Positions 19,172 to 48,255 are shown, counted from the first letter of the stretch. The stretch: 64,000 nucleotides of DNA from an uncultured Alteromonadaceae bacterium (GCA_964620555.1 CAZUGZ010000001.1:13667-77666), one strand, 5' to 3'. Program-made: numbers and translations. The notes: generated by a model not told the origin, from the sequence alone.

Positions 19172-19175
19172 GACC

Positions 19176-22463: not shown

Positions 22464-22468
22464 GGGCT

Positions 22469-25640: not shown

Positions 25641-25691
25641 CGACTGAAAGCTCCCGGATTGGCGTGTGCGACTGTATTCTCGATCATTCCG

Positions 25692-27829: not shown

Positions 27830-27946
27830 AACCGGGCTCCCGGGGACAGCGCGTTTGCCGCCGATTGTAACACCACGGCGAAACTGGCCATTTTCCCGAC
27901 CTTGTCACATACTTTGCTCAACGCTGCAGCCCGAGCAGGACACTAC

Positions 27947-32190: not shown

Positions 32191-32329
32191 TGATTCCCCT
32201 GGCTGGAACAGCAGTGTGGTGTTGGCAGCCGCGCGGATGATACCGCAATTGATCAGGTGATTCAGGTCAGACTGTGCTACCGTGATCGCCCTCAGCGGAT
32301 CTGTCCACCATGCCGGGGAGAAGGAGCCG

Positions 32330-33616
32330 ATGCCCTTGGGCAATGCCACGACCAGGCGGGGTCTCGAGACCACGACGGATTACCAAAACCCCCATCGCCC
32401 GCTTCCGGTCAGGGTCTTCAACCGTATCGGAAGGTCGTGGAATGACCCGGGAGTGTTTGCCGCTCCGGGCACGGGGCGACTCCTGGACGATGCCCGAAGA
32501 AAGACCGGCCTTTTGGATTTCGGTGACGACGGTCACTTTGAGGCCCTGCAGGTTCTGCTGCAGTCCATCGGGGACGAAGCCGAGTTGACTGCAACGGGCC
32601 GGCTCATACAGAGAAACCGCCTCTCCGGCGCACTCGCCTGTCGGCTGAGGATCGAGCACCTGCTGAACAAACATCCCGAAATTCTTGACGTCGATCTCGG
32701 CTCGGTCATCGTGATTACCGGATTGCAGCGCACCGGCACCACGCTGCTGCACCGTCTGCTGCATTGCAACCCGGATATTCGCGGTGTTTCGGGTGAGGAA
32801 GCGCTCGATCCGGTGCCGGCGGGCGGGGCGGCAGGCCGGATGGCCGCGGGCCGCAGACGGCGTGCGCTGCTGGCCCAGCGGGCCATTGCCTACCTGTCAC
32901 CACAATTCATGAAAGTCCATCCCATCGACCACGGCGAACCGGAGGAAGACGTCCTGTTGCTCGATTTGAATTTCATGAGTCAGGCACCGGAAGCAACCAT
33001 GCATGTACCAACCTACTCCCGCTGGCTTGAGCAACAGGACCATACCCGCAACTACGAATATTTTCGGAAAATCCTGAAGATCCTCTGCTGGCAACGTCCT
33101 GCCGGCCGGTGGGTACTCAAGACGCCACACCACATGGAATATCTGGACGCACTACTGAAAGTTTTTCCCGAAGCCACAATTGTGCAAACCCACCGTGACC
33201 CGCAAATGGCGCTGCCGTCCTTCTGCAGCATGGTTGCCCACAGCCGCGCCATCTTCAGCGATCGGGTCGATCCCGTGGAAATTGGTGATCATTGGTGCCG
33301 AAAGACCCGCAGGATGGTCGAGCTGACTATGGAGACCCGGGCCGCAGCCGATTCCGAACGATTTGTCGATGTCTCCTACCACCACCTGTTGGATGATCCG
33401 ATGGCACAGCTCAGGCGCATCTACGATCGGATCGGGTTAGAATTTGACCATGAAGCCGAGCGAATCGCCCGGCAGTACCTGAAGAAAAATCCAAAAAATC
33501 GCTATGGCAAACACACCTATCGACTGAGCGATTTCGGATTGAACGGGGAAGTCGTCGAAAGACAGTTTGCGGATTATCGGGCGCAGCATGCCATTCCGTT
33601 TGAACGGTCAGGTTGA
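32330..33616 (+). CDS. P-loop sulfotransferase family protein
   Basis: ATG preceded by GGAGAAGGAG (an alternative GTG is at 32282). 5'-PSB motif ITGLQRTGTTLLHRLL. LKTPHHMEYLDALLKVFPEATIVQTHRDP (3'-PB region). Confidence 0.7.
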   Translation: MPLGNATTRRGLETTTDYQNPHRPLPVRVFNRIGRSWNDPGVFAAPGTGRLLDDARRKTGLLDFGDDGHFEALQVLLQSIGDEAELTATGRLIQRNRLSGALACRLRIEHLLNKHPEILDVDLGSVIVITGLQRTGTTLLHRLLHCNPDIRGVSGEEALDPVPAGGAAGRMAAGRRRRALLAQRAIAYLSPQFMKVHPIDHGEPEEDVLLLDLNFMSQAPEATMHVPTYSRWLEQQDHTRNYEYFRKILKILCWQRPAGRWVLKTPHHMEYLDALLKVFPEATIVQTHRDPQMALPSFCSMVAHSRAIFSDRVDPVEIGDHWCRKTRRMVELTMETRAAADSERFVDVSYHHLLDDPMAQLRRIYDRIGLEFDHEAERIARQYLKKNPKNRYGKHTYRLSDFGLNGEVVERQFADYRAQHAIPFERSG

Positions 33617-33651
33617 GATGGCAGCGGCGCGGGACAAACTGGGGTGAAGCG

Positions 33652-34680
33652 ATGTCTGGCAGAAGCAGACAAACCAGAGCGGTAGGCGATGGTACCGTAG
33701 CCAACGCCCTGTTCACTGCGGTGCGGGAGCTCAGGCAACCCAAGATTTTGGACCTGGAACCCGTTGCCGCCGATGTGCGGATCGATGGCAGGACCTGTCT
33801 GGTCACGGGAGCCAGCAGCGGCCTGGGCCTGGCAGCGGCTGTTCAACTCGCGCGGCGGGGAGGGCGCGTTATCGTCGCCTGCCGGCCCGGACATTGCGGG
33901 ATCCGCGAAAGGATAATGCGCCTGTCCGGTTCCGATTCCGTGGAATCCATGGAGGTCGACCTCTCCGACACGGATTCTGTGCATCGATTTTGCGACCACT
34001 TGAAGGCGCGCAATGTCCGCCTCGACATCGCATTGCTGAACGCCGGTCTGGTGCCGCCCAGGGCGAGAAAGACGCGGCAGGGGTACGACGTGATGTTCGC
34101 GGTTCATTTCCTGTCTTCACGGATAATGATCGAGCGATGGCTGCGGGATAAGCTGATCGAACCTCCCGGCGGGAACGGGGAGATGCCTCGCATCGTCTTC
34201 GTCGCATCCGAATCGCATCGCTCCTCGCAGCAAATCGATTTCGACCGTCTCGGCGAGTTCACCGATTACCGGATAAAAGAGAGCATGAAATACTACGGCT
34301 TGAGCAAGCTGGTTCTGTGTACCTACGCAACCGAACTTTCCCGCCGTTTGAATCCGGACGGCAAGCCACGGGTTGCGGTTCACGCCCTGTGCCCCGGTGG
34401 TGTGGCCTCGAATATCGCCAGGGACGCGCCGCTGCTGTTGAAGCCGGTCATCAACCTGCTGTTGAGGTGTTTCCTGCAATCTCCCGAACAGGCCGTTGGC
34501 CCCGTGGTCTACCTGTGTTGCTCGGAGGAGGCCGGCCGCGCTACGGGAATGTACCTGCACCTCATGCAGCGGAAATCCGTATCGCCGGCAGCATCGGATC
34601 CGGAAAACGGAACCAGGTTATGGGAAGCCAGTGAGCGCCTGGTGGAAATTTCAGGATTACCGCCCGACGGCGGCTCCTGA
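33652..34680 (+). CDS. Short-chain dehydrogenase/reductase (retinol-dehydrogenase-like)
   Basis: CLVTGASSGLGLAAAVQLARRG, LLNAGL, YYGLSKL (Y-x3-K). Start uncertain (33613 or 33652). Confidence 0.75.
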   Translation: MSGRSRQTRAVGDGTVANALFTAVRELRQPKILDLEPVAADVRIDGRTCLVTGASSGLGLAAAVQLARRGGRVIVACRPGHCGIRERIMRLSGSDSVESMEVDLSDTDSVHRFCDHLKARNVRLDIALLNAGLVPPRARKTRQGYDVMFAVHFLSSRIMIERWLRDKLIEPPGGNGEMPRIVFVASESHRSSQQIDFDRLGEFTDYRIKESMKYYGLSKLVLCTYATELSRRLNPDGKPRVAVHALCPGGVASNIARDAPLLLKPVINLLLRCFLQSPEQAVGPVVYLCCSEEAGRATGMYLHLMQRKSVSPAASDPENGTRLWEASERLVEISGLPPDGGS

Positions 34681-34792
34681 GCGATGACGAAGAAGGGGAC
34701 GGAATGACGAAGAAGGGGGGTGTGATCGAAATTCGCCAACGCTGCCTCGCTCGCTTACCATACCGGCATCCAGGGTAAGGGCGGAGTGATCG

Positions 34793-36379
34793 ATGAGTAA
34801 ACAGTACGACATCGTCGTGGTCGGCGGCGGCAGCAACAGCCTGGTGGCGGCGGCCTATATGGCCAAGGCCGGCAACAGCGTGCTGGTGCTGGAGAAAAAC
34901 GACCAGTGTGGCGGCGGGGTAGTGTCCATCGAAATCGCCCCCGGCTTTATCAACGATCCCCACGCCAGCGGCTATTACGTTTGCGTGGCCAACCCGGCCG
35001 TTACCCACGACGAATTGGGGCTGTTTTCCCGACACGGGCTTGAGTTCAAGTACTGGAAGGCCGGCTTTGCCACCATCTTTGACGATGGAACCACGCTGAC
35101 CGCGTACTCGGACCTGGACAAGAGCTGCGAGGACATCGCCAAATTCTCCCACAAGGATGCGGAAACCTACCGCGCCTTCGCGGCGGACTGCGCGGAGCTC
35201 CTGCCCATCCTGACCCGGGGTTTTTCCACACCCCCTCTGCCCACCGGCAATTTCCTCAACATGCTGGAGGCCACGCCCCTGGGCCGCAAGCTCGCTGCCT
35301 CCCTGTTTACCAGCGCGTACGAGATAATCGATCACCTGTATGAGTCCCCCGAGCTGAAGATTCATATCATGAAGTGGTGCTCCGAGATGATGGAGAATCC
35401 CGAAATCAAGGGCACCGGTGTGGTGATGTACCAGTTGTTCGGGCTCGCCCACGCGTACGATGCGGCCATTCCCGTCGGTGGCTCCAAAGCCCTTAGCAAC
35501 GCCCTGCTGCGTTGTATCGAGCATCACGGCGGCGAGATCCGCACCGGGGCGGAGGTCACCAGCCTGAAGATACGCTCTGGTGACGTGGAAGGGGTTTACG
35601 TGGGCGACGAACTGATCGAGGCGAAAAAATCCGTGATCGCCAATATCCACCCCTGGCGGCTGAAGGACTTTATTCCTGAAGTCGACCCCGATGTTGCCGA
35701 AGCTGCGCGCCGCGTACACCTCAGTAATCACGGCGCGGTGAACCAGCAGTTCGCCCTCTCCGAGCGCCCGAAGCTGAAGGCCGGGCCCCAGTTCGATGAA
35801 TCACTGTGTGTGGAGTTCGTGGAGAAGGATGTGGAGGGTTGCCGGCGGGTGTTCGACGAGTATCGCTATGGCCATATCCCGAAACATCACCTGAGTCCGT
35901 TGACCATGATCAACAGCAATCTCGACCCTACGCGTGCTCCGGAGGGTCAGGCCACAATGTACCTGTACCATTTCGCCCCGTGTGTATTGGCCGATGGCGG
36001 CCTGGAGGCCTGGGCGCGGCCGGAAAACGGGCAGGCCTTCGCCGACGCGATCCTGGAGAACTACACGCAGTACACCACGAATATCGACAGTTCGAAGATT
36101 ATCGCCCGCCACATCGAGACGCCGTTGGAGCATCACCATCATTCCATGAACATGATGCATGGCGACATCTACGGTATCGGTACGACTTTCGGCCAGTTAC
36201 TGGGCCGCCGGCCGACACCGGAACTGTCGCAGTACAAGGTACCGGGCATATCCTCCCTGTACCTGGTGGGCCCCACGCAACACCCGGGCGGCACCGTGAC
36301 CCTGGGTGGCCGCGCTACCGCCATGCGCATGGCAATGGACTGGGGTATGGACCTCAAGTCCGTGTTCGAGGCCTACTGA
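34793..36379 (+). CDS. FAD/NAD(P)-dependent oxidoreductase, phytoene-desaturase (CrtI)-like family
   Basis: 528 aa. Dinucleotide fold YDIVVVGGGSNSLVAAAYMAKAGNSVLVLEKNDQCGG. C-terminal LYLVGPTQHPGGTV. Confidence 0.75.
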   Translation: MSKQYDIVVVGGGSNSLVAAAYMAKAGNSVLVLEKNDQCGGGVVSIEIAPGFINDPHASGYYVCVANPAVTHDELGLFSRHGLEFKYWKAGFATIFDDGTTLTAYSDLDKSCEDIAKFSHKDAETYRAFAADCAELLPILTRGFSTPPLPTGNFLNMLEATPLGRKLAASLFTSAYEIIDHLYESPELKIHIMKWCSEMMENPEIKGTGVVMYQLFGLAHAYDAAIPVGGSKALSNALLRCIEHHGGEIRTGAEVTSLKIRSGDVEGVYVGDELIEAKKSVIANIHPWRLKDFIPEVDPDVAEAARRVHLSNHGAVNQQFALSERPKLKAGPQFDESLCVEFVEKDVEGCRRVFDEYRYGHIPKHHLSPLTMINSNLDPTRAPEGQATMYLYHFAPCVLADGGLEAWARPENGQAFADAILENYTQYTTNIDSSKIIARHIETPLEHHHHSMNMMHGDIYGIGTTFGQLLGRRPTPELSQYKVPGISSLYLVGPTQHPGGTVTLGGRATAMRMAMDWGMDLKSVFEAY

Positions 36380-38727
36380 TGGCGTGATGCAGTCTCGTGG
36401 GGCAGAGGTGGCGGAACCGCAGCGGTTCCGGACAGGGACAGCAGCGGCGCGACGAGCAGCAGGCAGACACCCAGGGCCAGGACAAAGGTCATGGCACTCA
36501 TGACCCCCAGCGTCGCGTTGGGGGTGTAATCAGCAAAACTCAGAATGAAAAAGCCGATTCCCATGACGGCGGTGTTGACGATCAATGCCGGCGCCACATT
36601 GTTGATGCTGTACTCCAGAGCACTGTATTTGTCGGCGCCGTGGTGCAGGCGCGCATAGTTGAATTTGCTGATCAGGTGAACGGAATTGTCCACCACGATG
36701 CCGAGCGAAATGCCCAGTACGATTACGGCGGCAAGGCCGACGTAGCTGGCGAACACTCCCCATATCCCGAACATCAGGACCAGTGGGCAGGTAACGCCGA
36801 GCATGCCCAGCAGGCCCTGGCGCAACGATTGAAAAGCGATGATCAGGATCAGGCCTATACAGGCGAAAGACAGCAATGAAGTGGACAGGGAATCTCTCAT
36901 CACCCCGTAGAGGAGGTCGTTGACCAGAAAAACACCACCGGCAGTGTAGACTGAATACTCTGGAAACGCCTCGGACAGCTTTTCTTCCAGCCTGACTGCT
37001 GCGGCATGGGTGTTGACCGAGTCTTCGTCGTTAATGGTGGCAACCAGTCGAATCCCCGATTTGTCCATATTCAGTTGATTGGTCAGATCCAGGCCGTAGG
37101 GCAGGGACATTTCGTAGAGCAAATGGTACTGCGATGCCAATTCGCGGCTTTCCGGCAGCCGGTAGTAGTCCGGATTGTCACCGTGCAGGTTCCTGTTGAT
37201 ACGCTTTAGCGCGTCGGTGTAGCTGAATACGTGTCGTACGGAGTCCTGTTCCCGCAGCCAGTCTGCGAAGGCGTCGATCCGCTCCAGGAATTCCACCTCG
37301 TGTACCGAGTCAGGGGTATCCGATTCGATGGCGACGATCAGATTGCCGCTTCCGGTCAGGTGGGCCTGGTTGAACTCATGGTTCTGCCGGTAGAGCGAGT
37401 CGGGCCCGTAGAACCAGATCATATTGTCTTTCGGACTGTTCAGGGGCAGCAGCAAGGCCGCCACCACACAGGCGGTGACGCTGATCGCCGTGAGTTTTCG
37501 CCGGTGGACGGGAATGCGGTCGGCGAGAAACGCCGCGAATTGCGTGGCTCTGTCGGTGCGACTGCTCGCCTCGATATGAAACGGGACACAGGACAGGAAT
37601 GCGGGAAGAAAAATTATTGAGAAGAGCAATGCCAGGACGATACCCACGGATACGATGTTACCCAGCCCGACCAGCGGTTCGAAAGAACTCAAATTGAACA
37701 TCAGAAAGCCGATTGCCGTGGTTACCGTGGTCAGCAGGATGGCGACGATATTCTGTTTTACTGCCTGCACTATGGCAGGGTTCTTCTCGACCCCCTGCAG
37801 CATCAGTTTCTTCAGCGTCATCAAAATGTGAATGGAATCGGCGACTGCCAGTGTCATGATCATGATCGGCGCACTGGAGGTTGGCAGCGTAAAGGGTGTG
37901 CGGCTGTAGCCGACCAGACCCGTGGTCGACAGGATGGTGAGGGCGATCACTGCGAGGCAGGCAATGGTGATGACCCAGTTTCCGAGGAAAAAGTAGATTC
38001 CCAGAATCACCAGCACGCTGGCCAGGGTGAACAGGGTGAGCACATCGTGAAGGGCCAGGAAGGCTGTCTCGGCGTGCCCGGTTACTATTCCCACATGCCT
38101 GAATTCCATATTCGGGTAGCGTTTGACAAAGCCGTCGAGCATGGTTCGAAACTCGTTTTCCAGTTCGATATTGGCGATCACGTCCCGATCGTCATAGTGG
38201 AAGATGATATTGATCGCAGCCGCACCACCGTCTTCGCTCACATGGAGGTTTCTCAGTTGCGGTTCCCGGCTGGCGATGCGGGCGATGCGCTCGATATTTT
38301 TCCGGGACAGTTCCAGGTCGGCGGGCACCAGATCGTCGACAATGAGTTCATCTCCCTCTGCGTAGGTGTATTGATAGTTGTTGAGCGAGTCGACCCGCCG
38401 CACGTGGCTGAGGCCCCAGGCCGCCTCGGTGATTTCGCGCATGACTCCCAGCACTTCCGGCTGGTAGACAGTGCCGGACCCGGGGCGCACGATGAGGAAG
38501 ATATTGTCGTCTTTGACGTAGTTGTCCTCCATGTGATCGATCATCAGCCGGTAGCGGTGATCGTCTGCCAAATAGGACTTGTAGCTGTGGTCGAGGGTGG
38601 CGTGACGCAGGCCGCTGGACATCGCGCAGGCGGCAATGACTGTGAGAAACAGCACCAGGTAGCGATGCCGGATAACGCCCAGTACCAGATCGTCGACGAA
38701 TCTGTAGGCAAATTTCTCCACCGGCAT
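36373..38727 (-). CDS. RND-superfamily lipid exporter (MMPL/HpnN-like)
   Basis: Start MPVEKFAYRF at 38727, about 784 aa. Two six-TM bundles, each preceded by a periplasmic domain. Only the C-terminal 784 aa of the 1264-aa track ORF are used. Visibly less GC-rich than its neighbours. Confidence 0.8.
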   Translation of the reverse strand: MPVEKFAYRFVDDLVLGVIRHRYLVLFLTVIAACAMSSGLRHATLDHSYKSYLADDHRYRLMIDHMEDNYVKDDNIFLIVRPGSGTVYQPEVLGVMREITEAAWGLSHVRRVDSLNNYQYTYAEGDELIVDDLVPADLELSRKNIERIARIASREPQLRNLHVSEDGGAAAINIIFHYDDRDVIANIELENEFRTMLDGFVKRYPNMEFRHVGIVTGHAETAFLALHDVLTLFTLASVLVILGIYFFLGNWVITIACLAVIALTILSTTGLVGYSRTPFTLPTSSAPIMIMTLAVADSIHILMTLKKLMLQGVEKNPAIVQAVKQNIVAILLTTVTTAIGFLMFNLSSFEPLVGLGNIVSVGIVLALLFSIIFLPAFLSCVPFHIEASSRTDRATQFAAFLADRIPVHRRKLTAISVTACVVAALLLPLNSPKDNMIWFYGPDSLYRQNHEFNQAHLTGSGNLIVAIESDTPDSVHEVEFLERIDAFADWLREQDSVRHVFSYTDALKRINRNLHGDNPDYYRLPESRELASQYHLLYEMSLPYGLDLTNQLNMDKSGIRLVATINDEDSVNTHAAAVRLEEKLSEAFPEYSVYTAGGVFLVNDLLYGVMRDSLSTSLLSFACIGLILIIAFQSLRQGLLGMLGVTCPLVLMFGIWGVFASYVGLAAVIVLGISLGIVVDNSVHLISKFNYARLHHGADKYSALEYSINNVAPALIVNTAVMGIGFFILSFADYTPNATLGVMSAMTFVLALGVCLLLVAPLLSLSGTAAVPPPLPHETASRHQ

Positions 38728-38925
38728 ATGGTCCTTTCCTGTCACGGCGTCGCCGGAGCGACGTTGGCTGGCAATTGCCCACCATGATAGTACGATTACT
38801 GTATCTACCGTTATGAAAAAGTGACGTAGCGTTGCCGCTTGTATTCCATTCAGGTGGTAATCCATGTAACGATATTTCCGATGGTGTATCTTGATTGAAT
38901 CGATGACAGACAGAGGTGAATACTG

Positions 38926-40329
38926 ATGACCGGGATAATCGAAGGTTTCGGCACGAAAGAGAGCCCGCTGGTGCGGGATCTGTTGGCCAGTGACTCGCAA
39001 ACTGTGCCCGACTGCCTGAAGGCGGAGGGCAATTACTACCCCGAGCCGCGAACTGTGCCCTTCAGTACCTATTTCGATTCCGCCTATGCCGAGTTGGAAA
39101 TGGAGCATGTGTGGAAGAAGAGCTGGCAGTACGCCTGCCGGGAGGAAGACATCCCGGAAACAGGCGACCGCTATCCCTACGAGGTGGGGCCCCTGTCTTT
39201 CATCATCATCCGCAGTGGCGACGACGAATTCCGCGCCTTTCACAACAGTTGTCTGCACCGCGGCACCAAGTTGTGCAGCGGCATTTTCGGCGGCGACCAC
39301 ATCCGCTGTCCCTTTCACGGCTGGACCTGGAACCTGGACGGTTCCGTGCACAACATTCCCGGCCGCTGGGACTTTCCCCAGGTGGACGACAGCTACCGCC
39401 TGGTGGAGGTGAGGTTGGAGCGCTGGGGTGGCTGCCTGTTTATCAACCCGGACCCGGACGCGGGCCCCCTGGAAGATGCCCTGGGCATCCTGCCGGAGCA
39501 CTTCAATCACTTCGACCTGGGCAACCGCTTTACGCTGGCGGTGACGCAAAAGAAAATTCGCGCCAACTGGAAGCACGTGTGGGCCGCTTTCCTGGAGTCC
39601 TATCACGTGGCGGAGACGCACTTTGATGCGGTGGATTTCAACGGTGACGCCAATACCAAGTACGACTGTTACGACAACGGCAAGACGGTGATTAGCCGGC
39701 TGATCACCCCCTCGGCGGTACCCAGCCCGAGTCTTGGGGACGAGGTCAGCGCGCGCCAGGCGGCAATCAATGCAGCGCGATCCTTCGCCAACGCCCTGGG
39801 CCCGGCGGCGGAGGCCAGCCTGCCCGCCTTCGACGAGATGCCGGATTTCGGGCGCAGGGATGTGGCGGCCTGGCGGCGAGAGCTGTTCAAGACCCTGGGT
39901 GCGGATACCAGCCACCTGTGTGACTCGGAATTGCTGGACAGCACCCAGTACGCCATGTTCCCCAATTTCGGGCCCTGGCTCGGTGAGGGGTTGCCCCTGA
40001 TGTACCAGTTCCTGCCCCTGGGGGACAACCCGAATGAATCGCTGTTTACCGTGCGCCTGACCGCTCCCTGCCCCGACGGGGCGCCGCGGCCACCGTCGGC
40101 GCCGGTGACCTACCTGAATTTTGACGAGTTCTTCTCGAGCCTGCCGGAGTGGGGGCGCATCGCCCACGTATTCGACCAGGACATGTCAAACCTGCCGCAT
40201 ATCCAGGCGGGTATGCGCGCTGCCGGCGCGGAGCGCTCCCAGGTGACCCTGGGCCGTTACCAGGAGCAGCGTATTACCCTGATGCACGAGTTCGTGGACC
40301 GCAAGATCGCCGAGGGGCAGGGCGGCTAG
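38926..40329 (+). CDS. Rieske [2Fe-2S] non-haem-iron oxygenase, alpha subunit
   Basis: 467 aa. Rieske motif CLHRGTKLC...CPFHGWTW. Mononuclear-iron region ESYHVAETH. No beta subunit, ferredoxin or reductase gene nearby. Confidence 0.85.
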   Translation: MTGIIEGFGTKESPLVRDLLASDSQTVPDCLKAEGNYYPEPRTVPFSTYFDSAYAELEMEHVWKKSWQYACREEDIPETGDRYPYEVGPLSFIIIRSGDDEFRAFHNSCLHRGTKLCSGIFGGDHIRCPFHGWTWNLDGSVHNIPGRWDFPQVDDSYRLVEVRLERWGGCLFINPDPDAGPLEDALGILPEHFNHFDLGNRFTLAVTQKKIRANWKHVWAAFLESYHVAETHFDAVDFNGDANTKYDCYDNGKTVISRLITPSAVPSPSLGDEVSARQAAINAARSFANALGPAAEASLPAFDEMPDFGRRDVAAWRRELFKTLGADTSHLCDSELLDSTQYAMFPNFGPWLGEGLPLMYQFLPLGDNPNESLFTVRLTAPCPDGAPRPPSAPVTYLNFDEFFSSLPEWGRIAHVFDQDMSNLPHIQAGMRAAGAERSQVTLGRYQEQRITLMHEFVDRKIAEGQGG

Positions 40330-40413
40330 GCGTCTGCGCGATTGCCGCTCACCGAGCTTGGTGTTACGGTGGCCTGGTCTGTCCCCCTGGACGTTTCGGA
40401 TTCGGAGGAAAAA

Positions 40414-41073
40414 ATGACTTCAGCGCACGGGTCGCCGGGTTGGGCCTGGCGGGCAACAGCTATGATTCTCCTGCCGCTGCTTTGCCACGGCGCGTACGGG
40501 GTGGACGAACCCCAGCCGGACGAAATCAGGGAAATCACGGCGACGGCGACCATCATGAGTTGCGACTCGCAAAGGCGGATTGGCCGGGCCCTGCTGCGCG
40601 AGCGGCCCTCCGCCGAGGGCGTGAAGACCGTCGATGTGGAGATCGATGTGCGGCGTGGCCTCAGCGGAGGGAACCATGCCGTTCACATTCACGAAACGGG
40701 AGCGTGCGAACCATGTTCCGCGGCCGGCGGGCACTTTGATCCCGGGCCTCACGGCAACACGAGTCCCGACGGCAACCATCCGTTTCATGCGGGCGATCTG
40801 GTGAACCTGAAAGTCTGCGACCCGTCGGCGGAGGAGTGCGACAGCGAGGGGGAACGGGTCGGCGGAGGTACACTCACGACGCTGACCACTCGCGTCACCC
40901 TGTCGGACGGACCGCTGACGCTGTTCGACGAGGACGGCAGCGCCTTCATAATCCACACCAAGCCCGACTCCTACTGTCCGGGCGGAGAAGTGGCCGGTTG
41001 TGCCGGCGGAAGTCGGGCCGCCTGCGGGGTGATCGTGAAGGACGCCGGATTGACGAAGCGGGGGCCGGGGTGA
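40414..41073 (+). CDS. sodC: Cu/Zn superoxide dismutase family protein (periplasmic)
   Basis: ATG preceded by GGAGGA. Signal peptide WRATAMILLPLLCHGAYG. Metal ligands HAVHIHETG, GGHFDP, HPFHAGDL, FIIHTKPD. Confidence 0.8.
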   Translation: MTSAHGSPGWAWRATAMILLPLLCHGAYGVDEPQPDEIREITATATIMSCDSQRRIGRALLRERPSAEGVKTVDVEIDVRRGLSGGNHAVHIHETGACEPCSAAGGHFDPGPHGNTSPDGNHPFHAGDLVNLKVCDPSAEECDSEGERVGGGTLTTLTTRVTLSDGPLTLFDEDGSAFIIHTKPDSYCPGGEVAGCAGGSRAACGVIVKDAGLTKRGPG

Positions 41074-41110: not shown

Positions 41111-41201
<91 letters not shown>

Positions 41202-41238: not shown

Positions 41239-42186
41239 TCAGGCGGCTTTTTCGATGGGGTCGGAGAGGGGGTGAAGCGGCGCCGGCGGCAACTCGCGGG
41301 TCTGTGCCAACACTTCGAACAGGTCGTGGCGCACATGATTCTGCGCCATCTCCTGGCGCAGGAACTGCTCGCTTATGCGGTCCGATTCCAGGCACTCCTT
41401 GAGCAGGGCCAGGAAAAAATTCTCCTGGTTGCGGTCGGGGTGGGGCTTGTAGTTGCCGAGAAAGGCGTATTCGCCGAACAGGTGACGACGGGCGCGCAGC
41501 AGCCAGGCAGCCGGGGGGAACAGCCGAAAGCGTTCGGCCGGACGCCAGTCGGTGGGCAGTCCGGTCTTCCAGGGCTGAGTCTTGCGGCGCGTGGTGTGCA
41601 GCAATCGGGTGGCGGTTGTGAATCGGTCAAAATCATTCCACTCCGCCTCAAAAAAACCGATGCTGTCGCGGTCCTCCTGCTTCAGACAGATCCATGGCTG
41701 ATAATCCTGCTCGAGGTCGAACATGGCGTTGAAGGTGGCTTCCGCATCCCAATGCCGCAGGCGGGCACAGTCCAGCAGCATGACACTGCTGGCAAAGCAG
41801 CGGTCGACCAGCCCCTTGGGACCCGAACGCATCCGGCAGAGGATGGCCTTGCCCTGCATGTCCCGGGACAGTAACTCCCAGACATCAGCGCTGGCGAAAA
41901 TGTCGGGATCGATGACCAGCGCCCGGCCCTGGTACCCCATCAACTCGGGTGGCATGAAGCGGGTGGGAGTAAAGGATTGCAGGTCGTCGTTGCGCCAGAC
42001 GCGTTTGACCCCGTCGCGCAGGTACAGTTGGCCCTCGCGGGCGGCGAACATGGGGTAGTCGCGGCTGTCGATGATCCTGATTTCAAAGCGGTCGTTATGG
42101 CTTGAATAACGCCGCAGGGCGTATTCGCCGACGATGGCCCCGGTCATCTGCTTGTGATTGGTCTGTATGAAAACGCAGTAGTCCAT
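41239..42186 (-). CDS. GT8-like nucleotide-diphospho-sugar glycosyltransferase, paralogue A
   Basis: Start MDYCVFIQTNHKQ at 42186, 315 aa. DxD-type motif ALVIDPDIFA, SSVMLLDCARLRHW, HTTRRKTQPWKTGLP. Clearly paralogous to 47353-48255. Confidence 0.6.
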   Translation of the reverse strand: MDYCVFIQTNHKQMTGAIVGEYALRRYSSHNDRFEIRIIDSRDYPMFAAREGQLYLRDGVKRVWRNDDLQSFTPTRFMPPELMGYQGRALVIDPDIFASADVWELLSRDMQGKAILCRMRSGPKGLVDRCFASSVMLLDCARLRHWDAEATFNAMFDLEQDYQPWICLKQEDRDSIGFFEAEWNDFDRFTTATRLLHTTRRKTQPWKTGLPTDWRPAERFRLFPPAAWLLRARRHLFGEYAFLGNYKPHPDRNQENFFLALLKECLESDRISEQFLRQEMAQNHVRHDLFEVLAQTRELPPAPLHPLSDPIEKAA

Positions 42187-42257: not shown

Positions 42258-43079
42258 TCAGCGCCGGGTGTTCTGATAGAGTATGCGGTTGCGCCTGATG
42301 TCGGCGTGGCGCGGAACAAAGCCGTGATCGTAGAGAAAGACATTGGTCTCGATAAAGGTATGTGCCTGCTGCTGGCCCCGTTCGTAGCCGCAATCCAGCG
42401 CCACCCAGTCGATGCGGGCCAGCGATTTGGTGGCGCCTTCGAGGACTTCCGGCTCCGCTCCCTCGGCTTCCACCTTGAAAATGACGGTTCCCTCCACGCC
42501 GGACAGGTCGAGTGCGCCGTCCAGGGTTACCGCCGGCACCTCGGTGCGCGAGACGGAACCGGGCATGTCGATTATTGAGCTGTCGGCCGACTCCGGTTTG
42601 GAGTAGAACGAGAGCGTCGTCTCTTCGTTCCACAGGGCCTCGCGTCGCGTGCCCGGCTGGCCACCGAAATTGTTCAGGTCGCAGCAGCGCGCCTCCAGCG
42701 GCTCTGGTTCGAAGGCAATATAGTCGAGTTCATGGGCTCGCGCCCACAGGCCGAGTTCCCCAATATTGGCGCCGGAGTCGACGAACAGGCCGCCATTGCT
42801 CAGGTCGATCACTTCCAGGTGGTACTCGTGGGCGAGGTCGCGTACCCGCCGCATCACCCCGCGCTTGAAGCGGTAGCTGCGCCGCAGCCGGCAGAAATGG
42901 ATGCGCGTTTCGCCGTCATCGGCACGAAATACCGGTTCCCCGGGGAGCGGAGAGATCCGGTGCCGGTTGCCGAGCGCGGCGTAAACAGTATTTGCCAGCA
43001 GGCAGTACGGCTTGCGTGGTATCCGGTTGCGGGTGCTCCGGGCAAAGTTGAGGAGCGCATCAGATTGCAGTTTTTTCAC
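42258..43079 (-). CDS. FkbM-family methyltransferase
   Basis: 273 aa. SAM-binding FVDSGANIGELGLWA, IAFEPEP, IFKVEAEGAEPEVLEG (the FkbM pattern K.D.EG.E..vL.G). Confidence 0.75.
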   Translation of the reverse strand: MKKLQSDALLNFARSTRNRIPRKPYCLLANTVYAALGNRHRISPLPGEPVFRADDGETRIHFCRLRRSYRFKRGVMRRVRDLAHEYHLEVIDLSNGGLFVDSGANIGELGLWARAHELDYIAFEPEPLEARCCDLNNFGGQPGTRREALWNEETTLSFYSKPESADSSIIDMPGSVSRTEVPAVTLDGALDLSGVEGTVIFKVEAEGAEPEVLEGATKSLARIDWVALDCGYERGQQQAHTFIETNVFLYDHGFVPRHADIRRNRILYQNTRR

Positions 43080-43283: not shown

Positions 43284-44576
43284 TTGAACGGTTCCCGTTT
43301 CGCGACCATCAATTCACTATCCTGGCTGGTCATGCTCATGCTGGCCACGGTTTACGTCGTTCCCATGCCCTTCGATGCCCTGTTCTTCGGGGTGCTGCTG
43401 TACGCGCTGTGCAAACTGCCCGCCGGTGAGCGCAACCACTGGCAGATAACCGGCGACCCCCTGTTCTGGCTGGGCACCGCACTGCTGGCTTACCTGAGTC
43501 TGAGCACGCTGTGGTCGGTGGAGGTCAGTGTGAAAGGTGTCGGGCAGGTGTGGCTGCGGGCGGCAATGGCCGCCACTTTCGTTCTTGCAGTGGTGATAGT
43601 GATCGGTCGGCGCGCAGACTTTGGTGTCGCGCTGAGTCGGGCGGTGGTGGCGGGGGCAGTGGCCGGTGCCGCAATCGCCCTGTTCTGTTACCTGGTCGAG
43701 CCTCCCGGGGATGGCCGCCTGCAGGGTTTGCTCCGCTTCGACAACGCCGGCCGCGCCGGGCGCATATTTTGTGCCGCGCTGCCCTTTGCCTTGACCCTGC
43801 TGTTTGCCGATCATCGCCACTGGCGGGTGTTGGGCGCTTTCGCCGTGCTCATCCTCTGCCTGGCGACCTTGTTGACGGATACCAGGGCGGCGTGGCTGGC
43901 CGCCGCGACTTGCCTGGCGGTTTACGGTATCGCCGTGCTGCGGCCACGGCTGCACCGCCTGCTGGCGGGCCTGGCGGGCGCGGCGGCGCTGGCCCTGGGT
44001 ATTTTCTACCTGGCGCTGCACAACCTCGACCTGTACGCCCTGATTTTACCGCGCGGAGGGAGTCTGCGGCTGGATATCTGGTCTGCTGCCACAGCAGACC
44101 TGATCGCCAGCAAGCCGTGGTACGGCTGGGGCCATCTCACCGATTACTGGACCACCGTTGGTGACCGGGAGATTCGAGGTACCCACAACATGTACCTGAC
44201 GGTGCTGTGGCAGGGTGGCCTGATCGGGCTGCTGCTGTTCGTCGGGACCCTGTTGGGTGTCGGGCTGCGCTTGACGAGATACCTGGATGACGTGAATGCG
44301 CGAATCGGCCTGAGCCTGCTGGCGGCAGGGTGCGTGGCCTTTGTATTCGGCGGCGACAGGATCATCGAAAAGATCGAATTTGTGCTGTTTGTGCTTTGGC
44401 TGCCACTGGGCATCGCCCTGTCGCTGCGATTGAAAAGCACCGCAGGAATGGCCCCGATGATGCAACGCGGGCCCCGCGTCCAGTCACCTACCGGAATACC
44501 CCCCGTCGATACAGCCGCCAGAAAAACCCCCAGCAGTAGAGAAGTGGTCGCTCCCGCACGCGTGGTGGAATGCTGA
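43284..44576 (+). CDS. O-antigen ligase/polymerase-like (Wzy_C) integral membrane protein
   Basis: About 12 TM segments. TDTRAAWLAAATCLAVY and a loop with GTHNMYLTVLWQGGLIGLLLF typical of the Wzy_C domain. Start is TTG 43284 or ATG 43332. The non-conserved tail overlaps the convergent gene by 89 nt. Confidence 0.7.
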   Translation: MNGSRFATINSLSWLVMLMLATVYVVPMPFDALFFGVLLYALCKLPAGERNHWQITGDPLFWLGTALLAYLSLSTLWSVEVSVKGVGQVWLRAAMAATFVLAVVIVIGRRADFGVALSRAVVAGAVAGAAIALFCYLVEPPGDGRLQGLLRFDNAGRAGRIFCAALPFALTLLFADHRHWRVLGAFAVLILCLATLLTDTRAAWLAAATCLAVYGIAVLRPRLHRLLAGLAGAAALALGIFYLALHNLDLYALILPRGGSLRLDIWSAATADLIASKPWYGWGHLTDYWTTVGDREIRGTHNMYLTVLWQGGLIGLLLFVGTLLGVGLRLTRYLDDVNARIGLSLLAAGCVAFVFGGDRIIEKIEFVLFVLWLPLGIALSLRLKSTAGMAPMMQRGPRVQSPTGIPPVDTAARKTPSSREVVAPARVVEC

Positions 44577-45423
44577 TCTGCTGACCGGAGTGGCGTTCCA
44601 GTTTCCAGGCGATGTAGTCGAGCCCGCCGTCAAAAGTGAACAATGCCTTGAGCAGGCGCAGCACCGAGCGCGCCTTGCCGAGGACGACTCGCAACGGCCA
44701 TGCCAGCCGGGCGCGGGCACGTTGCAGAGCGGTGCAGTGGCTGCGGTAGTGGCTTTGGCCGGCGTCGCTCCACAGTTCCAGTGCCAGTCCCTGCGCCTGC
44801 GCCAGGCGGGTTACCTGCTCGAAATGCCCGCTGCCACTGGCACTCAGTTGCCCGGCACGGCTGTCGCGTTCGGCGCGCAGTTCGGTGCGGTAGCTCAACC
44901 ACAGGCTGTGCTGCCAGAGTTGTTGCACTGTGCCGCTGGCGGGCAGCGTGGGCAGTCCGGCCCGTAACAGGGTAGTGACCGCACGCAGCAGGCATTCCCT
45001 CACCTGGCGGCCGCTGTCCTGGTCGCGCTGCCAGGCAATGGCAACCGGCTGCGCAAAACGCCCCCAAAAATAGGATTCCAGGGTGGTGCCGCCGGTAGCG
45101 CGGGCCAATTGCGCGGAGGACAGCAGCGCGTACTTGCAGCGCACCACCCGCTGCCGGTGCGTCGTCTCGGCGTAGAACACATTGGGTGGCAACAGCCAGT
45201 TGGCGGTGGCCGAAAGCCCCGCCCCGTAGGCCGAACGATAGTCGTCGCAGATCAGGTACAGGTCCAGCAAACCGTCGTGAATGTCGCCACTGCGCAGACA
45301 CGAGCCATACACCAGGACACAGTTGATGGCGCCGCGGTACCGCTCCAGCAGTGGCGCCAGTAGTGCGGCCAGGGCCGGGTCGGTGTCCGCGCTGGGTCCG
45401 GCGATGGTGGGAAAGCCGCTCAT
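44488..45423 (-). CDS. Pol-beta-type nucleotidyltransferase, Tam41/Mmp37-like (candidate lipid-phosphate cytidylyltransferase)
   Basis: 311 aa. VLVYGSCLRSGDIHDGLLDLYLICDDY (a G-S...D-x-D nucleotidyltransferase motif) followed by PPNVFYAETTHRQRVVRCKYALLSSAQL. This parallels the Tam41 pattern (...vYfn......g..iKYGvvs...L). ATGA overlap with the kinase stop. Confidence 0.5.
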   Translation of the reverse strand: MSGFPTIAGPSADTDPALAALLAPLLERYRGAINCVLVYGSCLRSGDIHDGLLDLYLICDDYRSAYGAGLSATANWLLPPNVFYAETTHRQRVVRCKYALLSSAQLARATGGTTLESYFWGRFAQPVAIAWQRDQDSGRQVRECLLRAVTTLLRAGLPTLPASGTVQQLWQHSLWLSYRTELRAERDSRAGQLSASGSGHFEQVTRLAQAQGLALELWSDAGQSHYRSHCTALQRARARLAWPLRVVLGKARSVLRLLKALFTFDGGLDYIAWKLERHSGQQISIPPRVRERPLLYCWGFFWRLYRRGVFR

Positions 45424-46370
45424 AACCTGATGAAAGTGACCGGTTGGCTGGCGCTGATGGTGATCGTACCGTCAGCGGCTCGGCTGCGCAGTATCTCTCC
45501 ATCCAGGTTGAACTCGGAGTCCAGCCGCAAGGTGATGTGGTCGGAGTTGTAGCTGAAGTAGCCGTATTCGGGCCGGGCGAAGCGATTGGGCCTGCCCCGT
45601 AGAATGGATTGCAGGCTGTACAGCAATCGCCGGCAGTGCTGCTCGATCACGGTCGTTCTCAGGGCCCCTGGCTCCCGACCCCAGAACGGATTGCTGCCCA
45701 GGAACAGGCGTTGCAGGCTGCTGATGAGGAGAACCAGGGCCTGGTGGTGGCCCGATAGCTGCTGTAACTGAAGTTCCACGTCTACCGGACGGTGAAATTG
45801 CGCCTCCCTGCGCAGCAGGCCCCAAATGGTGCGCAGCACCCCGAGGGCGACACTGAAATCGTCGCGCAGACCTCGCGAATGCAGTTCCCGATGTGCGTAT
45901 TCGGTACCCTGGATAACCGCCCCGGCGCCCAGGAACATGCCGTAGTGGGGTGGGCTGTCCGGGTCGATACAGACTCGCATCATCACCCGTTGAATGCGCT
46001 CGGATGGCACCGGATCACCGTTGCTCCAGGCGCAGAACTTTTTCAGGGCGGTTGCCGGAGTGCCGCGCACACCGACATCGCCGGCGCTCATGTTGGCGGT
46101 GCCCGCGGGCAGCAGAAGCACCGGCGGCAACTCGTTGAAGACCCGCTGTTCCAGGGCGTGGCCCAGCGTGGCAGCGAGCGTGCCGTCGCCCCCGTTGATG
46201 GCCAACGCCTGCAGTGGCTGTCGCCGCAGGCGGTCGAGAGCGGCTGCTATCTGCTGCGCATCGTCGGTAACGCAGTGGACAATATTGGGCTGGTCATCCA
46301 GCCGGCGCGTCCAGCGCTCGAAGCGGTCCCGGTTGTGGCCACTGTTCGGATTGCTGATCAGGCCGATCAA
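45420..46370 (-). CDS. DAGK_cat/LCB5-type lipid kinase
   Basis: 316 aa. LISNPNSG, ALAINGGDGTLAATL (GGDGT catalytic motif), LPAGTANM. ATGA overlap with the upstream gene. Confidence 0.8.
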   Translation of the reverse strand: MIGLISNPNSGHNRDRFERWTRRLDDQPNIVHCVTDDAQQIAAALDRLRRQPLQALAINGGDGTLAATLGHALEQRVFNELPPVLLLPAGTANMSAGDVGVRGTPATALKKFCAWSNGDPVPSERIQRVMMRVCIDPDSPPHYGMFLGAGAVIQGTEYAHRELHSRGLRDDFSVALGVLRTIWGLLRREAQFHRPVDVELQLQQLSGHHQALVLLISSLQRLFLGSNPFWGREPGALRTTVIEQHCRRLLYSLQSILRGRPNRFARPEYGYFSYNSDHITLRLDSEFNLDGEILRSRAADGTITISASQPVTFIRL

Positions 46371-47227
46371 AGGCTGGCACCGGACAGATCGATATGGGTC
46401 TCGCCGAAATGGGGTACCCGCCCGGAAATTCGCAGCGGCAGGCGAGTTTCCCGGTCCACCAGGAAATACACCTGGTCGCGCAAGCCCATCAACTCAAAAT
46501 CGTTCTGCTCGGGCTGCCGTACCGGCACTACCTGCAGTTCGATGCGGTCCGCGGAGACGGTCCCTTCCACCAGTTGCCCTCCTTCTCCCTGCAATCGGTA
46601 GCGAACGGCAACTGGCTGTTGGCCCTGGTTGCGCAACGTTGCCCGGTAAAAATTGTGGTCGGTGTGCAAATAGACTGTCAGGCTGTTGTCTACCGCGGTC
46701 AATTCGCCGGCAGTTGCCAATAGCAGCAGAGCGTACGGTGTCAGCAGGGGAGCGTCCATTTCGGGCAGGGCCAGTGACTCGCTGCTGGTGTCACTCCACT
46801 GCTGGTGGGGCAAGCGGTGTTCGCCCTGGGCCGGTTCCCTGCGCTGCCGCAGAATGTTCTCGGCCGCGTAGTCGAAGGACTTGAAACGCCGGTTCAGGCG
46901 GCCTTCGCTATAGCGCCGTTTGGCAAGTATGTTGCCGCGTGGAGAGGCCAGCAGCAGGGTAACCTGTTCCCGATTGTGTCGCCCCAGGCTGGCGTCCACC
47001 TGCAACTGCCAGTGGCAGCTTCCCCGCGCGTTGCGAACCGGCTGCAGTGCCAATTCGGCGGTGACGCCTCCCAGCGGAGAGGCCTGGTGATAATGCAGCG
47101 TTTGCCAGGGTGGAGCGGCAGTTGCCGGCGCGGCCATCGGCAGTAGCCAACAGCTGACGACAACGGCTGCGCAAAGGCTTGCGATGTTCCGTTCCGGCAG
47201 ATGGCGCTGCCACTTCATCAGCTTCAT
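46367..47227 (-). CDS. Exported protein of unknown function (possibly DUF3108-like)
   Basis: 286 aa. Signal peptide LCAAVVVSCWLLPMAAPATAA, then a predicted beta-rich body. First gene of the three-gene overlapping operon. Confidence 0.5.
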   Translation of the reverse strand: MKLMKWQRHLPERNIASLCAAVVVSCWLLPMAAPATAAPPWQTLHYHQASPLGGVTAELALQPVRNARGSCHWQLQVDASLGRHNREQVTLLLASPRGNILAKRRYSEGRLNRRFKSFDYAAENILRQRREPAQGEHRLPHQQWSDTSSESLALPEMDAPLLTPYALLLLATAGELTAVDNSLTVYLHTDHNFYRATLRNQGQQPVAVRYRLQGEGGQLVEGTVSADRIELQVVPVRQPEQNDFELMGLRDQVYFLVDRETRLPLRISGRVPHFGETHIDLSGASL

Positions 47228-47352
47228 GTCGGATACGCAATGGCACGGAACGGGCCGTCCAATCTATCACAAGCTTGAGAGCGGGGCGATCATCTTGTAG
47301 CCTGCACCCCTGTTGCAGTGCCCGCCCGCACTGCCAGTGAGGAGGCCGATTT

Positions 47353-48255
47353 GTGACCAACTGCGTCTTCATCCACACCAACGAGCGTCAGTGGCTGGGC
47401 GCACTGGTTGCCGAGTATTCGCTGCGCCGCAACAGTCGCACTGCGGACGAGTTTGAAGTCCGGTTGCTGCATACCCGTGACTTCGACTATCTCAGTGCGC
47501 GCGAAGGCCAGGACTACCTGCGTGCCGGCAGTTCACGCACCTGGCGCATGGACGATCTGCAATCCTTTACTCCCTTGCGTTTTCTGCCTCCCGCGCTGAT
47601 GCAGTGGCAGGGCCGGGCAGTGGTGATGGACCCCGACATTTTTGCGGTGGGCGATATCTGTGAACTGCTGGGCCGCGATATGGAGGGCGCCGCGGTGATG
47701 GGCAGGCACCGCTACCGGCAGGCTGCCAAGCAACACCTCGTGGCTACCAGCGTCATGCTGCTGGACTGTGCCCGGCTGCGGCATTGGGATGGGCCAGCCC
47801 AGTTCGAGGAACTGTTCCGATTCGAGCGCGATTACAAGGAGTGGATGGTACTGGCCCATGAGGACCCGGCCAATGTCGGCTTTCTGGAGCCCTGCTGGAA
47901 CGACTTCGACCACTTCGATGACGACACCCGGCTGCTGCACAACACCAAGCGTCGCACCCAGCCCTGGAAGACCGGTCTGCCGGTGGACTACACGCCCGCC
48001 GACAAATTCAAGCGCCTGCCGCTGCTGCGGCGGCTAAACCGCGCCCGCGCCCGCTGGCTGGGGGAATACGCGCTGCTGGGGCGCTACCGCCAGCATCCCG
48101 ACCAGCGCCAACAGGACTACTTTTTTGGCCTGCTCAAGGAATGCCTCGACTGCGGCCAACTGACGGAAGGCCTGCTCAGGGAAGAAATTGCCCGTCGCCA
48201 CCTGCGCCCCGACGCACTGCAGGTGTTGGCGCGCACTCCCGACCTGCGGCACTGA
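47353..48255 (+). CDS. GT8-like nucleotide-diphospho-sugar glycosyltransferase, paralogue B
   Basis: GTG start, 300 aa. MTNCVFIHTNERQ, AVVMDPDIFA, TSVMLLDCARLRHW, HNTKRRTQPWKTGLP. Collinear with paralogue A. Confidence 0.6.
   Translation: MTNCVFIHTNERQWLGALVAEYSLRRNSRTADEFEVRLLHTRDFDYLSAREGQDYLRAGSSRTWRMDDLQSFTPLRFLPPALMQWQGRAVVMDPDIFAVGDICELLGRDMEGAAVMGRHRYRQAAKQHLVATSVMLLDCARLRHWDGPAQFEELFRFERDYKEWMVLAHEDPANVGFLEPCWNDFDHFDDDTRLLHNTKRRTQPWKTGLPVDYTPADKFKRLPLLRRLNRARARWLGEYALLGRYRQHPDQRQQDYFFGLLKECLDCGQLTEGLLREEIARRHLRPDALQVLARTPDLRH

Follow-up and report, generated by a model that had tools for sequence, protein, structure and literature searches.

We analyzed a 64,000-nucleotide stretch of DNA from an uncultured Alteromonadaceae bacterium (GCA_964620555.1 CAZUGZ010000001.1:13667-77666). 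The whole 64-kb stretch is referred to as the window, and all coordinates are counted from its first letter. The element under study is a three-gene operon on the minus strand, which an earlier note, made from the sequence alone, had described as encoding an exported protein, a lipid kinase of the diacylglycerol kinase (DAGK) type, and a nucleotidyltransferase resembling Tam41, the mitochondrial cytidine diphosphate (CDP)-diacylglycerol synthase. The operon sits between a tRNA-Ser gene (41111-41201) and rplM-rpsI. The three open reading frames (ORFs) were recovered where the note had placed them (aa, amino acids):

46367-47227, minus strand: first gene, exported protein, ORF of 286 aa with an ATG start
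45420-46370, minus strand: second gene, DAGK_cat-type lipid kinase, ORF of 316 aa with a TTG start
44488-45423, minus strand: third gene, predicted Tam41-fold nucleotidyltransferase, ORF of 311 aa with an ATG start
46367-46370, minus strand: TTGA overlap of the exported-protein stop with the kinase TTG start
45420-45423, minus strand: ATGA overlap of the kinase stop with the start of the Tam41-like gene

The frames of all three ORFs were backed by the guanine-cytosine (GC) content of the codon positions, with third-position values (GC3) of 0.72-0.79. The earlier note had reported ATGA at both junctions. Both are 4-nucleotide overlaps, and 45420-45423 reads ATGA as claimed; the junction at 46367-46370, however, reads TTGA, so the kinase starts with TTG and not with ATG. 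Equivalent 4-nucleotide overlaps were found in two Halieaceae relatives (loci L001 and L002) and in a Roseomonas plasmid. A promoter and terminator scan of 44000-47600 resulted in counts at or below the shuffle expectation.

The kinase passed the Pfam model DAGK_cat (PF00781) with 44.1 bits against a gathering threshold of 23.6 (E=1.8e-11, residues 4-113), which agrees with the family proposed earlier, and the GGDGT nucleotide-binding motif was located at residues 60-64. The protein scored far below every NCBIfam lipid-kinase equivalog cut-off (YegS, BmrU, and Rv2252 types); the best score was 26.7 bits vs 274 for NF009604, followed by 22.8 vs 284 for YegS and 21.6 vs 118.65 for TIGR00147. The best PDB sequence match was also YegS (E=0.0055). 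The DAGK_cat domain with its GGDG motif is shared with the soluble lipid kinases of the YegS/DgkB/BmrU type, but, unlike them, the window kinase is locked to a Tam41-like gene and to sphingolipid loci.

The 311-aa protein harbors both motifs that had suggested Tam41 in the first place (YGSCLRSGD...LDLYLICDD and NVFY...VRCKYALLS). The model search proposed for it gave a split result: the single sequence missed the Pfam Tam41 threshold (13.4 bits vs 24), whereas a profile of 40 diverse family members matched the Tam41 structure 6ig2 in the PDB at E=3.2e-7. A profile of 26 close homologs ranked Schizosaccharomyces pombe Tam41 first in the PDB (E=0.023), and phmmer with the single 311-aa sequence against the PDB returned chance matches only. 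Eleven of the 40 diverse members matched the Pfam family Tam41_Mmp37 (PF09139, E<=0.01) and no other Pfam family, and the relative P0124 passed PF09139 with 34.3 bits. Five blocks are collinear with Tam41, namely YGS, a single Asp, K-Y-x-V-x-S, G-R-F-x-x-P, and S-Y-x-x-[ED]-x-R.

The check by predicted structure, also proposed earlier, pointed to Tam41 as well. The AlphaFold (AF2) model of the 311-aa protein (pLDDT 86.6, pTM 0.84) comprises a nucleotidyltransferase domain, a winged-helix-like domain, and a basic amphipathic C-terminus. In a Foldseek search of the PDB, ranks 1-5 were all Tam41 (6ig4 and 6ig2 from S. pombe; 7ecd from Firmicutes), with E-values from 3e-10 to 3e-9, TM-scores of 0.48-0.59, and 266-279 aligned columns. 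The next fold, the aminoglycoside nucleotidyltransferase ANT(4'), followed at E 5.6e-5, five orders of magnitude weaker. The Tam41 link is thus visible only by family profile or by structure and not by single-sequence search.

The details of the active site and of the C-terminus also resemble Tam41. Among the 40 diverse members, D54 (window numbering) is the only invariant acidic residue of the G-S...D-x-[DE] motif, with Tyr at the second position; a nucleotidyltransferase motif with one acidic residue has been reported for Tam41 (PMC11646218). The last 80 residues (232-311) carry a net charge of +13, and the helices at 244-262 and 292-309 show a hydrophobic moment of 0.62; the membrane helix of Tam41 is likewise positively charged, amphipathic, and C-terminal (PMC7018664). 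In its predicted fold, collinear blocks, single conserved acidic residue, and basic amphipathic membrane-binding region, the protein is like Tam41/TAMM41 (6ig2, 6ig4) and the Firmicutes protein 7ecd, whereas its genomic context points to ceramide-1-phosphate, and not to phosphatidate, as the acceptor. On the strength of the model and the profiles, we classify it as a distant Tam41-fold nucleotidyltransferase and not as a threshold-level Pfam member.

This context begins within the window itself. A complete sphingolipid locus lies at 12464-29059, 15-32 kb upstream of the operon in window coordinates, and contains the following genes (CC_ numbers are those of the Caulobacter locus):

21261-22463, minus strand: serine palmitoyltransferase (Spt), first sphingolipid step (NCBIfam equivalog NF047599, 574.8 bits vs 500)
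22469-22759, minus strand: acyl carrier protein (ACP), AcpR-like position beside spt (sub-threshold ACP matches, E=2.9e-10)
15950-17878, minus strand: fatty acyl-AMP ligase, in the position of the AasR-like acyl-ACP synthetase (NCBIfam NF006624, 760 bits vs 600)
15005-15946, minus strand: NAD-dependent epimerase/dehydratase-family reductase, CerR-like position (Pfam Epimerase)
18026-19171, plus strand: bCerS-like N-acyltransferase candidate, positional equivalent of CC_1154
19176-19997, plus strand: MobA-like nucleoside triphosphate (NTP) transferase, CC_1153-like (Pfam NTP_transf_3)
25692-27829, minus strand: LptG/LptF-family permease pair (Pfam LptF_LptG, 195.6 and 192.4 bits)
23901-25640, minus strand: MsbA-like ATP-binding cassette (ABC) exporter adjoining the LptF/G pair (Pfam ABC_membrane and ABC_tran)

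The ACP gene adjoins Spt in other loci too. The bCerS-like candidate had no Pfam match, and its homolog in locus L019 had a weak GNAT match; it is 42% identical, over the full length, to the gene in the CC_1154 position of a Roseomonas plasmid (L085), and the MobA-like nucleotidyltransferase is 43% identical to the gene in the CC_1153 position of the same plasmid. The LptF/G pair is possibly of the sphingolipid-dedicated LptF2/G2 type, paralogs that export sphingolipid (bioRxiv 10.64898/2026.04.12.717747); the canonical lptB/lptA genes are separate, at 1435-2707, in an lptB/lptA-kdsC-kdsD group spanning 1.4-4.2 kb. Two LpxL-like acyltransferases, a fatty-acid hydroxylase, an EPSP-synthase-like gene, and two ELM1-type glycosyltransferases also lie within 12464-29059. 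The locus implies that this Halieaceae-type bacterium makes sphingolipids; the searched literature yielded no paper linking Halieaceae with sphingolipids.

We then surveyed the surroundings of the Tam41-like gene in other genomes. The family comprises 2,303 matches among 90%-identity clusters and 1,407 clusters at 50% identity (E<=1e-3). A pattern scan of species-representative genomes with an 8-sequence alignment gave at least 600 matches, and the synteny counts refer to the best 80 of these, none of which is from Caulobacter. Represented among the 80 loci are Alphaproteobacteria (Kiloniellaceae, Pelagibius, Geminicoccaceae, Hyphomicrobiales, and Sphingomonadales), Nitrospirales, Deltaproteobacteria, Binatia, and Gammaproteobacteria. 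The window proteins were submitted to tblastn against 83 loci, and homologs within 10 kb of the Tam41-like gene were counted:

Kinase: 78/83 loci
Spt: 60/83 loci
bCerS-like protein: 59/83 loci
MobA-type (CC_1153-like) nucleotidyltransferase: 57/83 loci
CerR-like protein: 55/83 loci
Acyl-AMP ligase: 53/83 loci
Wzy_C protein: 0/83 loci

The gene directly preceding the Tam41-like gene on its strand is the kinase gene in 74 of the 80 genomes of other species, and Spt lies no more than 1.5 kb away in 53 of the 80. The usual order is kinase, Tam41-like gene, and then convergent Spt, ACP, CerR-like gene, and ligase. The order kinase, Tam41-like gene, Spt, ACP was seen in many alphaproteobacterial genomes, including metagenome-assembled genomes (MAGs) of Sphingomonadales and the Roseomonas plasmid, and equals cpgB-cpgC-spt-acp of Caulobacter. 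On the plasmid, the RefSeq annotation reads CDP-alcohol phosphatidyltransferase, diacylglycerol kinase, hypothetical protein (Tam41-like family), aminotransferase, ACP, which is the published Caulobacter order cpgA-cpgB-cpgC-spt-acp. The pairing of kinase and nucleotidyltransferase next to spt is near-obligatory across phyla. The earlier note had named ceramide as a possible substrate, and the context agrees with it on two levels: Spt passes its equivalog cut-off with the rest of the ceramide pathway present in the window, and the pair stands beside spt in the majority of the other genomes.

The Tam41-like domain is joined to partner enzymes in three natural fusions (metagenomic proteins P0172, P0249, and P0270; L003, 3135-6378). 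P0172 joins DAGK_cat to the Tam41-like domain, and a CDP-alcohol phosphatidyltransferase gene stands just before this fusion. P0270, from a 21-member Lysobacterales cluster, joins a CDP-alcohol phosphatidyltransferase to the Tam41-like domain. In P0249, the partner is a MobA-type nucleotidyltransferase, and the N-terminus is 39% identical to the window enzyme at 19176-19997.

Some loci of the survey deserve separate mention. L085 is plasmid p1318-4 of Roseomonas marmotae; its Tam41-like genes are annotated as 'hypothetical protein', and the RefSeq name of its CC_1154-position gene (1309-2460), 'dATP pyrophosphohydrolase', is probably misleading. L084, on the IncP-type plasmid pPNP1 of Pseudomonas sp. 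JS425 (NZ_CP073662.1, 63823-82632), carries a sphingolipid cluster beside an IS5 transposase, with acyl-AMP ligase, epimerase, nucleotidyltransferase, lptF/lptG, kinase, Tam41-like, metallophosphoesterase, ELM1, CDP-alcohol phosphatidyltransferase, and cytidylyltransferase genes; this cluster suggests horizontal spread of the pathway. In four loci from Nitrospirales and deltaproteobacterial MAGs (L054, L061, L071, and L081), the kinase, Tam41-like, LptF/G, nucleotidyltransferase, and bCerS-like genes occur together with no Spt within 10 kb, so that either spt is elsewhere in the genome or the module serves another lipid.

The closest known counterpart is the Caulobacter cpgABC operon, in which the gene right after that of a DAGK/LCB5-type kinase encodes a Tam41/Mmp37-like protein of about 300 aa; the surrounding locus, CC_1152-CC_1168, contains spt, acp, cerR, acyl-ACP synthetase, cerS, a MobA-like nucleotidyltransferase, and LptF/G paralogs. 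CpgB (CC_1160/CCNA_01218) is a purified and characterized ceramide kinase, and its deletion leaves the phosphatidate of Caulobacter unchanged (PMC10331486). Deletion of cpgC (CC_1161/CCNA_01219) retains ceramide-1-phosphate and abolishes ceramide phosphoglycerate (PMC9393093). Zik et al. reported 'no conserved domains' in CpgC. Olea-Ozuna et al. (2024) found that CC_1161 homologs carry IPR015222, put forward a ceramide in NDP-activated form (NDP, nucleoside diphosphate), and described clusters of orthologs from Azotobacter vinelandii, Pseudomonas luteola, and Nitrosomonas eutropha (PMC11324152). The remark in the earlier note that such a route had not been seen described must therefore be withdrawn, since the pair is that of cpgB-cpgC, CpgC (CC_1161) has already been recorded as Tam41-like, and NDP-ceramide was proposed in 2024. 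CDP-ceramide as a genuine liponucleotide intermediate would be an idea already in print and not a new one; 'CDP-ceramide' was not found in the searched literature.

By position, the window kinase is the equivalent of the ceramide kinase CpgB, and the 311-aa protein is the equivalent of CpgC; the kinase gene overlaps the CpgC-type gene, and Spt is present in the same window. From this position and the family shared with CpgB, we infer that the kinase makes ceramide-1-phosphate. For the 311-aa protein, the fold comes from the comparisons above, whereas the substrate and the nucleotide are inferred by analogy. The window departs from Caulobacter in several respects. The host is a Halieaceae-type gammaproteobacterium, and the gene upstream of the kinase encodes a predicted secreted beta-barrel-like protein and not the CDP-alcohol phosphatidyltransferase CpgA. 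Additionally, no cpgA-, cpgD-, or CC_1158-like gene was found in the 64-kb window, and tblastn of the window with the CpgA-type, CpgD-type, and metallophosphoesterase queries of other loci gave nothing; these genes may lie elsewhere in the genome.

Taken as a whole, the operon is probably the head-group-initiating module of the sphingolipid locus, of the Caulobacter cpgB-cpgC type and working by a CDP-ceramide route. We have good confidence in one part of this reading, that the module is of the CpgB/CpgC type and acts on ceramide; for the specific cytidine triphosphate (CTP)/CDP-ceramide chemistry, argued from the likeness to Tam41, the chances would be about even. In the proposed pathway, ceramide would be supplied by the Spt, ACP, acyl-AMP ligase, bCerS-like, and CerR-like genes that lie 22-32 kb upstream in the window. 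The DAGK_cat kinase would convert it with adenosine triphosphate (ATP) into ceramide-1-phosphate at the cytoplasmic face of the inner membrane. The 311-aa protein, attached to the membrane by way of its basic amphipathic C-terminal helices, would move cytidine monophosphate (CMP) from CTP onto ceramide-1-phosphate, as Tam41 does on phosphatidate, giving CDP-ceramide and pyrophosphate. An alcohol would then attack the activated lipid, releasing CMP and leaving a phosphodiester head group; in Caulobacter, this alcohol would be glycerate or phosphoglycerate. The scheme is like the CdsA CDP-diacylglycerol (Kennedy) pathway, in which a lipid phosphate and CTP give a liponucleotide and an alcohol displaces CMP. 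It differs from it in that CdsA is an integral membrane protein of unrelated fold and that the lipid here would be ceramide.

The first gene of the operon is narrowly distributed. The N-terminus of the 286-aa protein has basic residues, a hydrophobic stretch, and A-x-A ahead of a conserved PPWQ; it is signal-peptide-like, in line with the export proposed earlier. The AF2 model shows a low-confidence N-terminal helix followed by an all-beta body (pLDDT 78.5). The protein had no Pfam or NCBIfam match, and only 7 homologs were found among 5.8 billion proteins, in addition to the syntenic genes in L001 and L002. A homolog was absent from the loci of the 80 other genomes and present within 10 kb in 2/83 loci, both from the Halieaceae relatives. 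The best PDB fold match of the model was weak (6ntr, the DUF1849 protein of Brucella abortus; E=1.3e-3, TM-score 0.40-0.45), followed by RseB/MucB/LolA-like proteins. These proteins are likewise secreted, all-beta, and open-barrel-like, but the 286-aa protein has no sequence similarity to them and no Pfam match. We assign it to neither DUF1849 nor LolA; the search gave no fold match at E<=0.001. Judged from the model, it is a secreted, open beta-barrel-like protein restricted to the Halieaceae lineage; a role as a periplasmic lipid-binding barrel is a lead only. In the proposed pathway, the translationally coupled exported protein possibly handles lipid in the periplasm.

The head-group module runs from the tRNA-Ser gene to rplM at 48365, and the operon shares this interval with the following features:

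41111-41201: tRNA-Ser, anticodon CGA, beside the head-group gene module
41239-42186, minus strand: second copy of a 300-aa conserved protein, paralog of 47353-48255
42258-43079, minus strand: FkbM-family methyltransferase (Pfam; NCBIfam TIGR01444, 51.2 bits vs 37.7)
43284-44576, plus strand: Wzy_C (O-antigen ligase/polymerase-like) membrane protein, convergent with the operon (Pfam Wzy_C, 59.6 bits)
47353-48255, plus strand: 300-aa conserved protein, divergent from the operon

The Wzy_C gene and the Tam41-like gene overlap tail-to-tail by 89 nucleotides (44488-44576). In L001 and L002, the order is Wzy_C, exported protein, kinase, Tam41-like gene, and GT2, so that Wzy_C immediately precedes the exported-protein gene on the operon strand. 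Given this placement upstream in the two relatives, the window seems to have undergone a local inversion. The two paralogs of about 300 aa that flank the operon are 54% identical to each other and had no Pfam, NCBIfam, or PDB match. Homologs sharing 54-74% identity with them were found in 10 sphingolipid loci of Alpha- and Gammaproteobacteria, and on this sequence evidence the two appear to belong to a strongly conserved, uncharacterized family tied to sphingolipid loci. A mobile island next to tRNA-Ser was considered and rejected; there is no sign of a recent island, because the GC content is flat and the placement by rplM-rpsI is syntenic in the two relatives.

The segment between the two sphingolipid modules (29100-41073) encodes a TonB-dependent receptor, a sulfotransferase, a short-chain dehydrogenase/reductase (SDR), a FAD amine-oxidase-like protein, an MMPL/RND transporter, a Rieske oxygenase, and a periplasmic Cu/Zn superoxide dismutase. 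Elsewhere in the window, the GC content falls to 0.53 at 6001-8000, compared with about 0.62 in the remainder.

Several points weigh against the CDP-ceramide module. The 311-aa protein scores below the PF09139 threshold (E=0.051) and is only 14-16% identical to the solved Tam41 structures, with a TM-score of about 0.5; because this places it on a distant Tam41 branch, its substrate could differ. Nucleotide specificity is not readable from the sequence. Searches of the 64-kb window recovered no CDP-alcohol phosphatidyltransferase, the enzyme that would be expected to consume a CDP-lipid. Unlike in Caulobacter, spt is 22 kb away from the pair, whose neighbors are glycan-type genes (Wzy_C, FkbM) and the conserved genes for proteins of about 300 aa. 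In vitro, CpgB accepts diacylglycerol as well, phosphorylating it at a comparable rate (PMC10331486), and the Klein-lab model has CpgC 'adding glycerate', not necessarily by way of a liponucleotide. Finally, the equivalence with CpgB and CpgC rests on synteny and published descriptions, and not on direct alignment.

In a first alternative, to which we give a minor but real chance, the Tam41-fold protein would act on ceramide-1-phosphate without making CDP-ceramide. The enzyme would use ATP, guanosine triphosphate (GTP), or uridine triphosphate (UTP), or would join ceramide-1-phosphate directly to glycerate or to NDP-glycerate; the NDP-glycerate would be the product of the neighboring MobA-type nucleotidyltransferase, compare the original model in which CpgC adds glycerate. 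The genetics place CpgC only between ceramide-1-phosphate and ceramide phosphoglycerate (PMC9393093), its mechanism was still called 'unidentified' in papers from 2025-2026 (PMC12275187, PMC13228409), and CDP-glycerate is made by CpgD (PMC12275187). However, esterification of an unactivated phosphate monoester with free glycerate is energetically unfavorable (PMC11324152), and nucleotidyltransferases of the pol-beta fold, Tam41 included, transfer a nucleoside monophosphate from NTP to an acceptor. The fusions speak on both sides: P0249 links the Tam41-like domain to a CC_1153-like nucleotidyltransferase, whose gene accompanies the family in more than half of the loci counted above, whereas the CDP-alcohol phosphatidyltransferase fusion P0270 fits a CDP-lipid hand-off. 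The lack of such a phosphatidyltransferase in the window favors the other chemistry; the conservation of the Tam41-specific blocks and of the single-Asp active site argues for the CDP-ceramide route.

It is improbable that the pair serves glycerolipid salvage, with the kinase turning diacylglycerol into phosphatidate and the Tam41-like protein turning phosphatidate into CDP-diacylglycerol, and with the sphingolipid neighborhood being incidental or a regulatory coupling. CDP-diacylglycerol is made by CdsA in Proteobacteria, and the family shares just 14-16% identity with true Tam41. Although spt does not adjoin the pair in the window, which would speak for salvage, the pair lies beside spt, acp, cerR, and cerS genes in most of the 80 genomes. 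Additionally, the closest folds are the solved Tam41 structures, including the bacterial 7ecd, which make CDP-diacylglycerol (PMC11646218, PMC7018664), and the in vitro activity of CpgB on diacylglycerol would suit this role; against this, deletion of cpgB was without effect on phosphatidate (PMC10331486) and deletion of cpgC specifically blocks the conversion of ceramide-1-phosphate (PMC9393093).

A role in the assembly of lipopolysaccharide (LPS), O-antigen, or capsule, in which the kinase and the nucleotidyltransferase would activate a polyprenol or a sugar-linked intermediate for the adjacent Wzy_C with the exported protein in the periplasm, is very improbable: although Wzy_C and FkbM are the immediate neighbors and Wzy_C and GT2 share one gene string in the relatives, close to ELM1 glycosyltransferases and sulfotransferases, the pair outside Halieaceae comes without Wzy_C (0/80 loci) and with spt, cerS-like, and cerR-like genes instead, glycan-type genes can just as well act in decorating the head group of a sphingolipid, and, to our knowledge, the known undecaprenol kinases are of the DgkA type and not of the DAGK_cat type.

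Under the CDP-ceramide reading that we prefer, the fate of the product would depend on genes around the module. It may stop at the mono-phosphodiester stage, because no genes of the cpgA, cpgD, and CC_1158 types turned up in the window; Olea-Ozuna et al. argued for the same stop in Zymomonas. Alternatively, it may be decorated differently, given the nearby Wzy_C, FkbM, ELM1, and sulfotransferase genes. Further decoration and export are suggested by these same genes together with the two 300-aa proteins, LptF/G, and the MsbA-like ABC exporter. In Halieaceae, the cpgB/cpgC-type pair has gained the coupled, predicted secreted protein and, in the relatives, a Wzy_C gene upstream in the string. A bolder proposal, which we regard as doubtful, is that this exported protein serves in the periplasm as a sphingolipid-binding carrier or assembly factor dedicated to the lipid and that Wzy_C ligates or polymerizes glycan onto phospho-ceramide. 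If true, the exported protein would be a candidate for the missing step between an LptF2/G2-type extractor and the outer membrane, and the product of Wzy_C would be an LPS-like, sphingolipid-anchored surface polymer.

The operon is thus a new and somewhat altered instance of the genetically known cpgB-cpgC module and not a new pathway. Lineage-specific here are the Halieaceae-only protein with a signal-peptide-like N-terminus and a predicted beta-barrel, and the absence of cpgA and cpgD from the window. The biochemical question is still of interest, since it concerns the CpgC step, which leads from ceramide-1-phosphate to the first phosphodiester head group and at which the biochemistry of the pathway has its main gap. 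To this step, the present analysis adds that the CpgC-type family has, as predicted, a Tam41 fold and an unusual one-aspartate active site. Through the fusions, the CDP-ceramide hypothesis gains in precision and can be tested directly, and the three fusion types could serve as guides for reconstituting the pathway. In bacteria, sphingolipids can stand in for part of the LPS of the outer membrane and shape polymyxin sensitivity. In this setting, the lineage-specific secreted protein is a candidate for the periplasmic leg of sphingolipid transport, and of interest in their own right are this protein, the Wzy_C gene that accompanies it in the relatives, and the occurrence of the module in Halieaceae. 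The window points to the abundant marine Halieaceae as likely sphingolipid producers.

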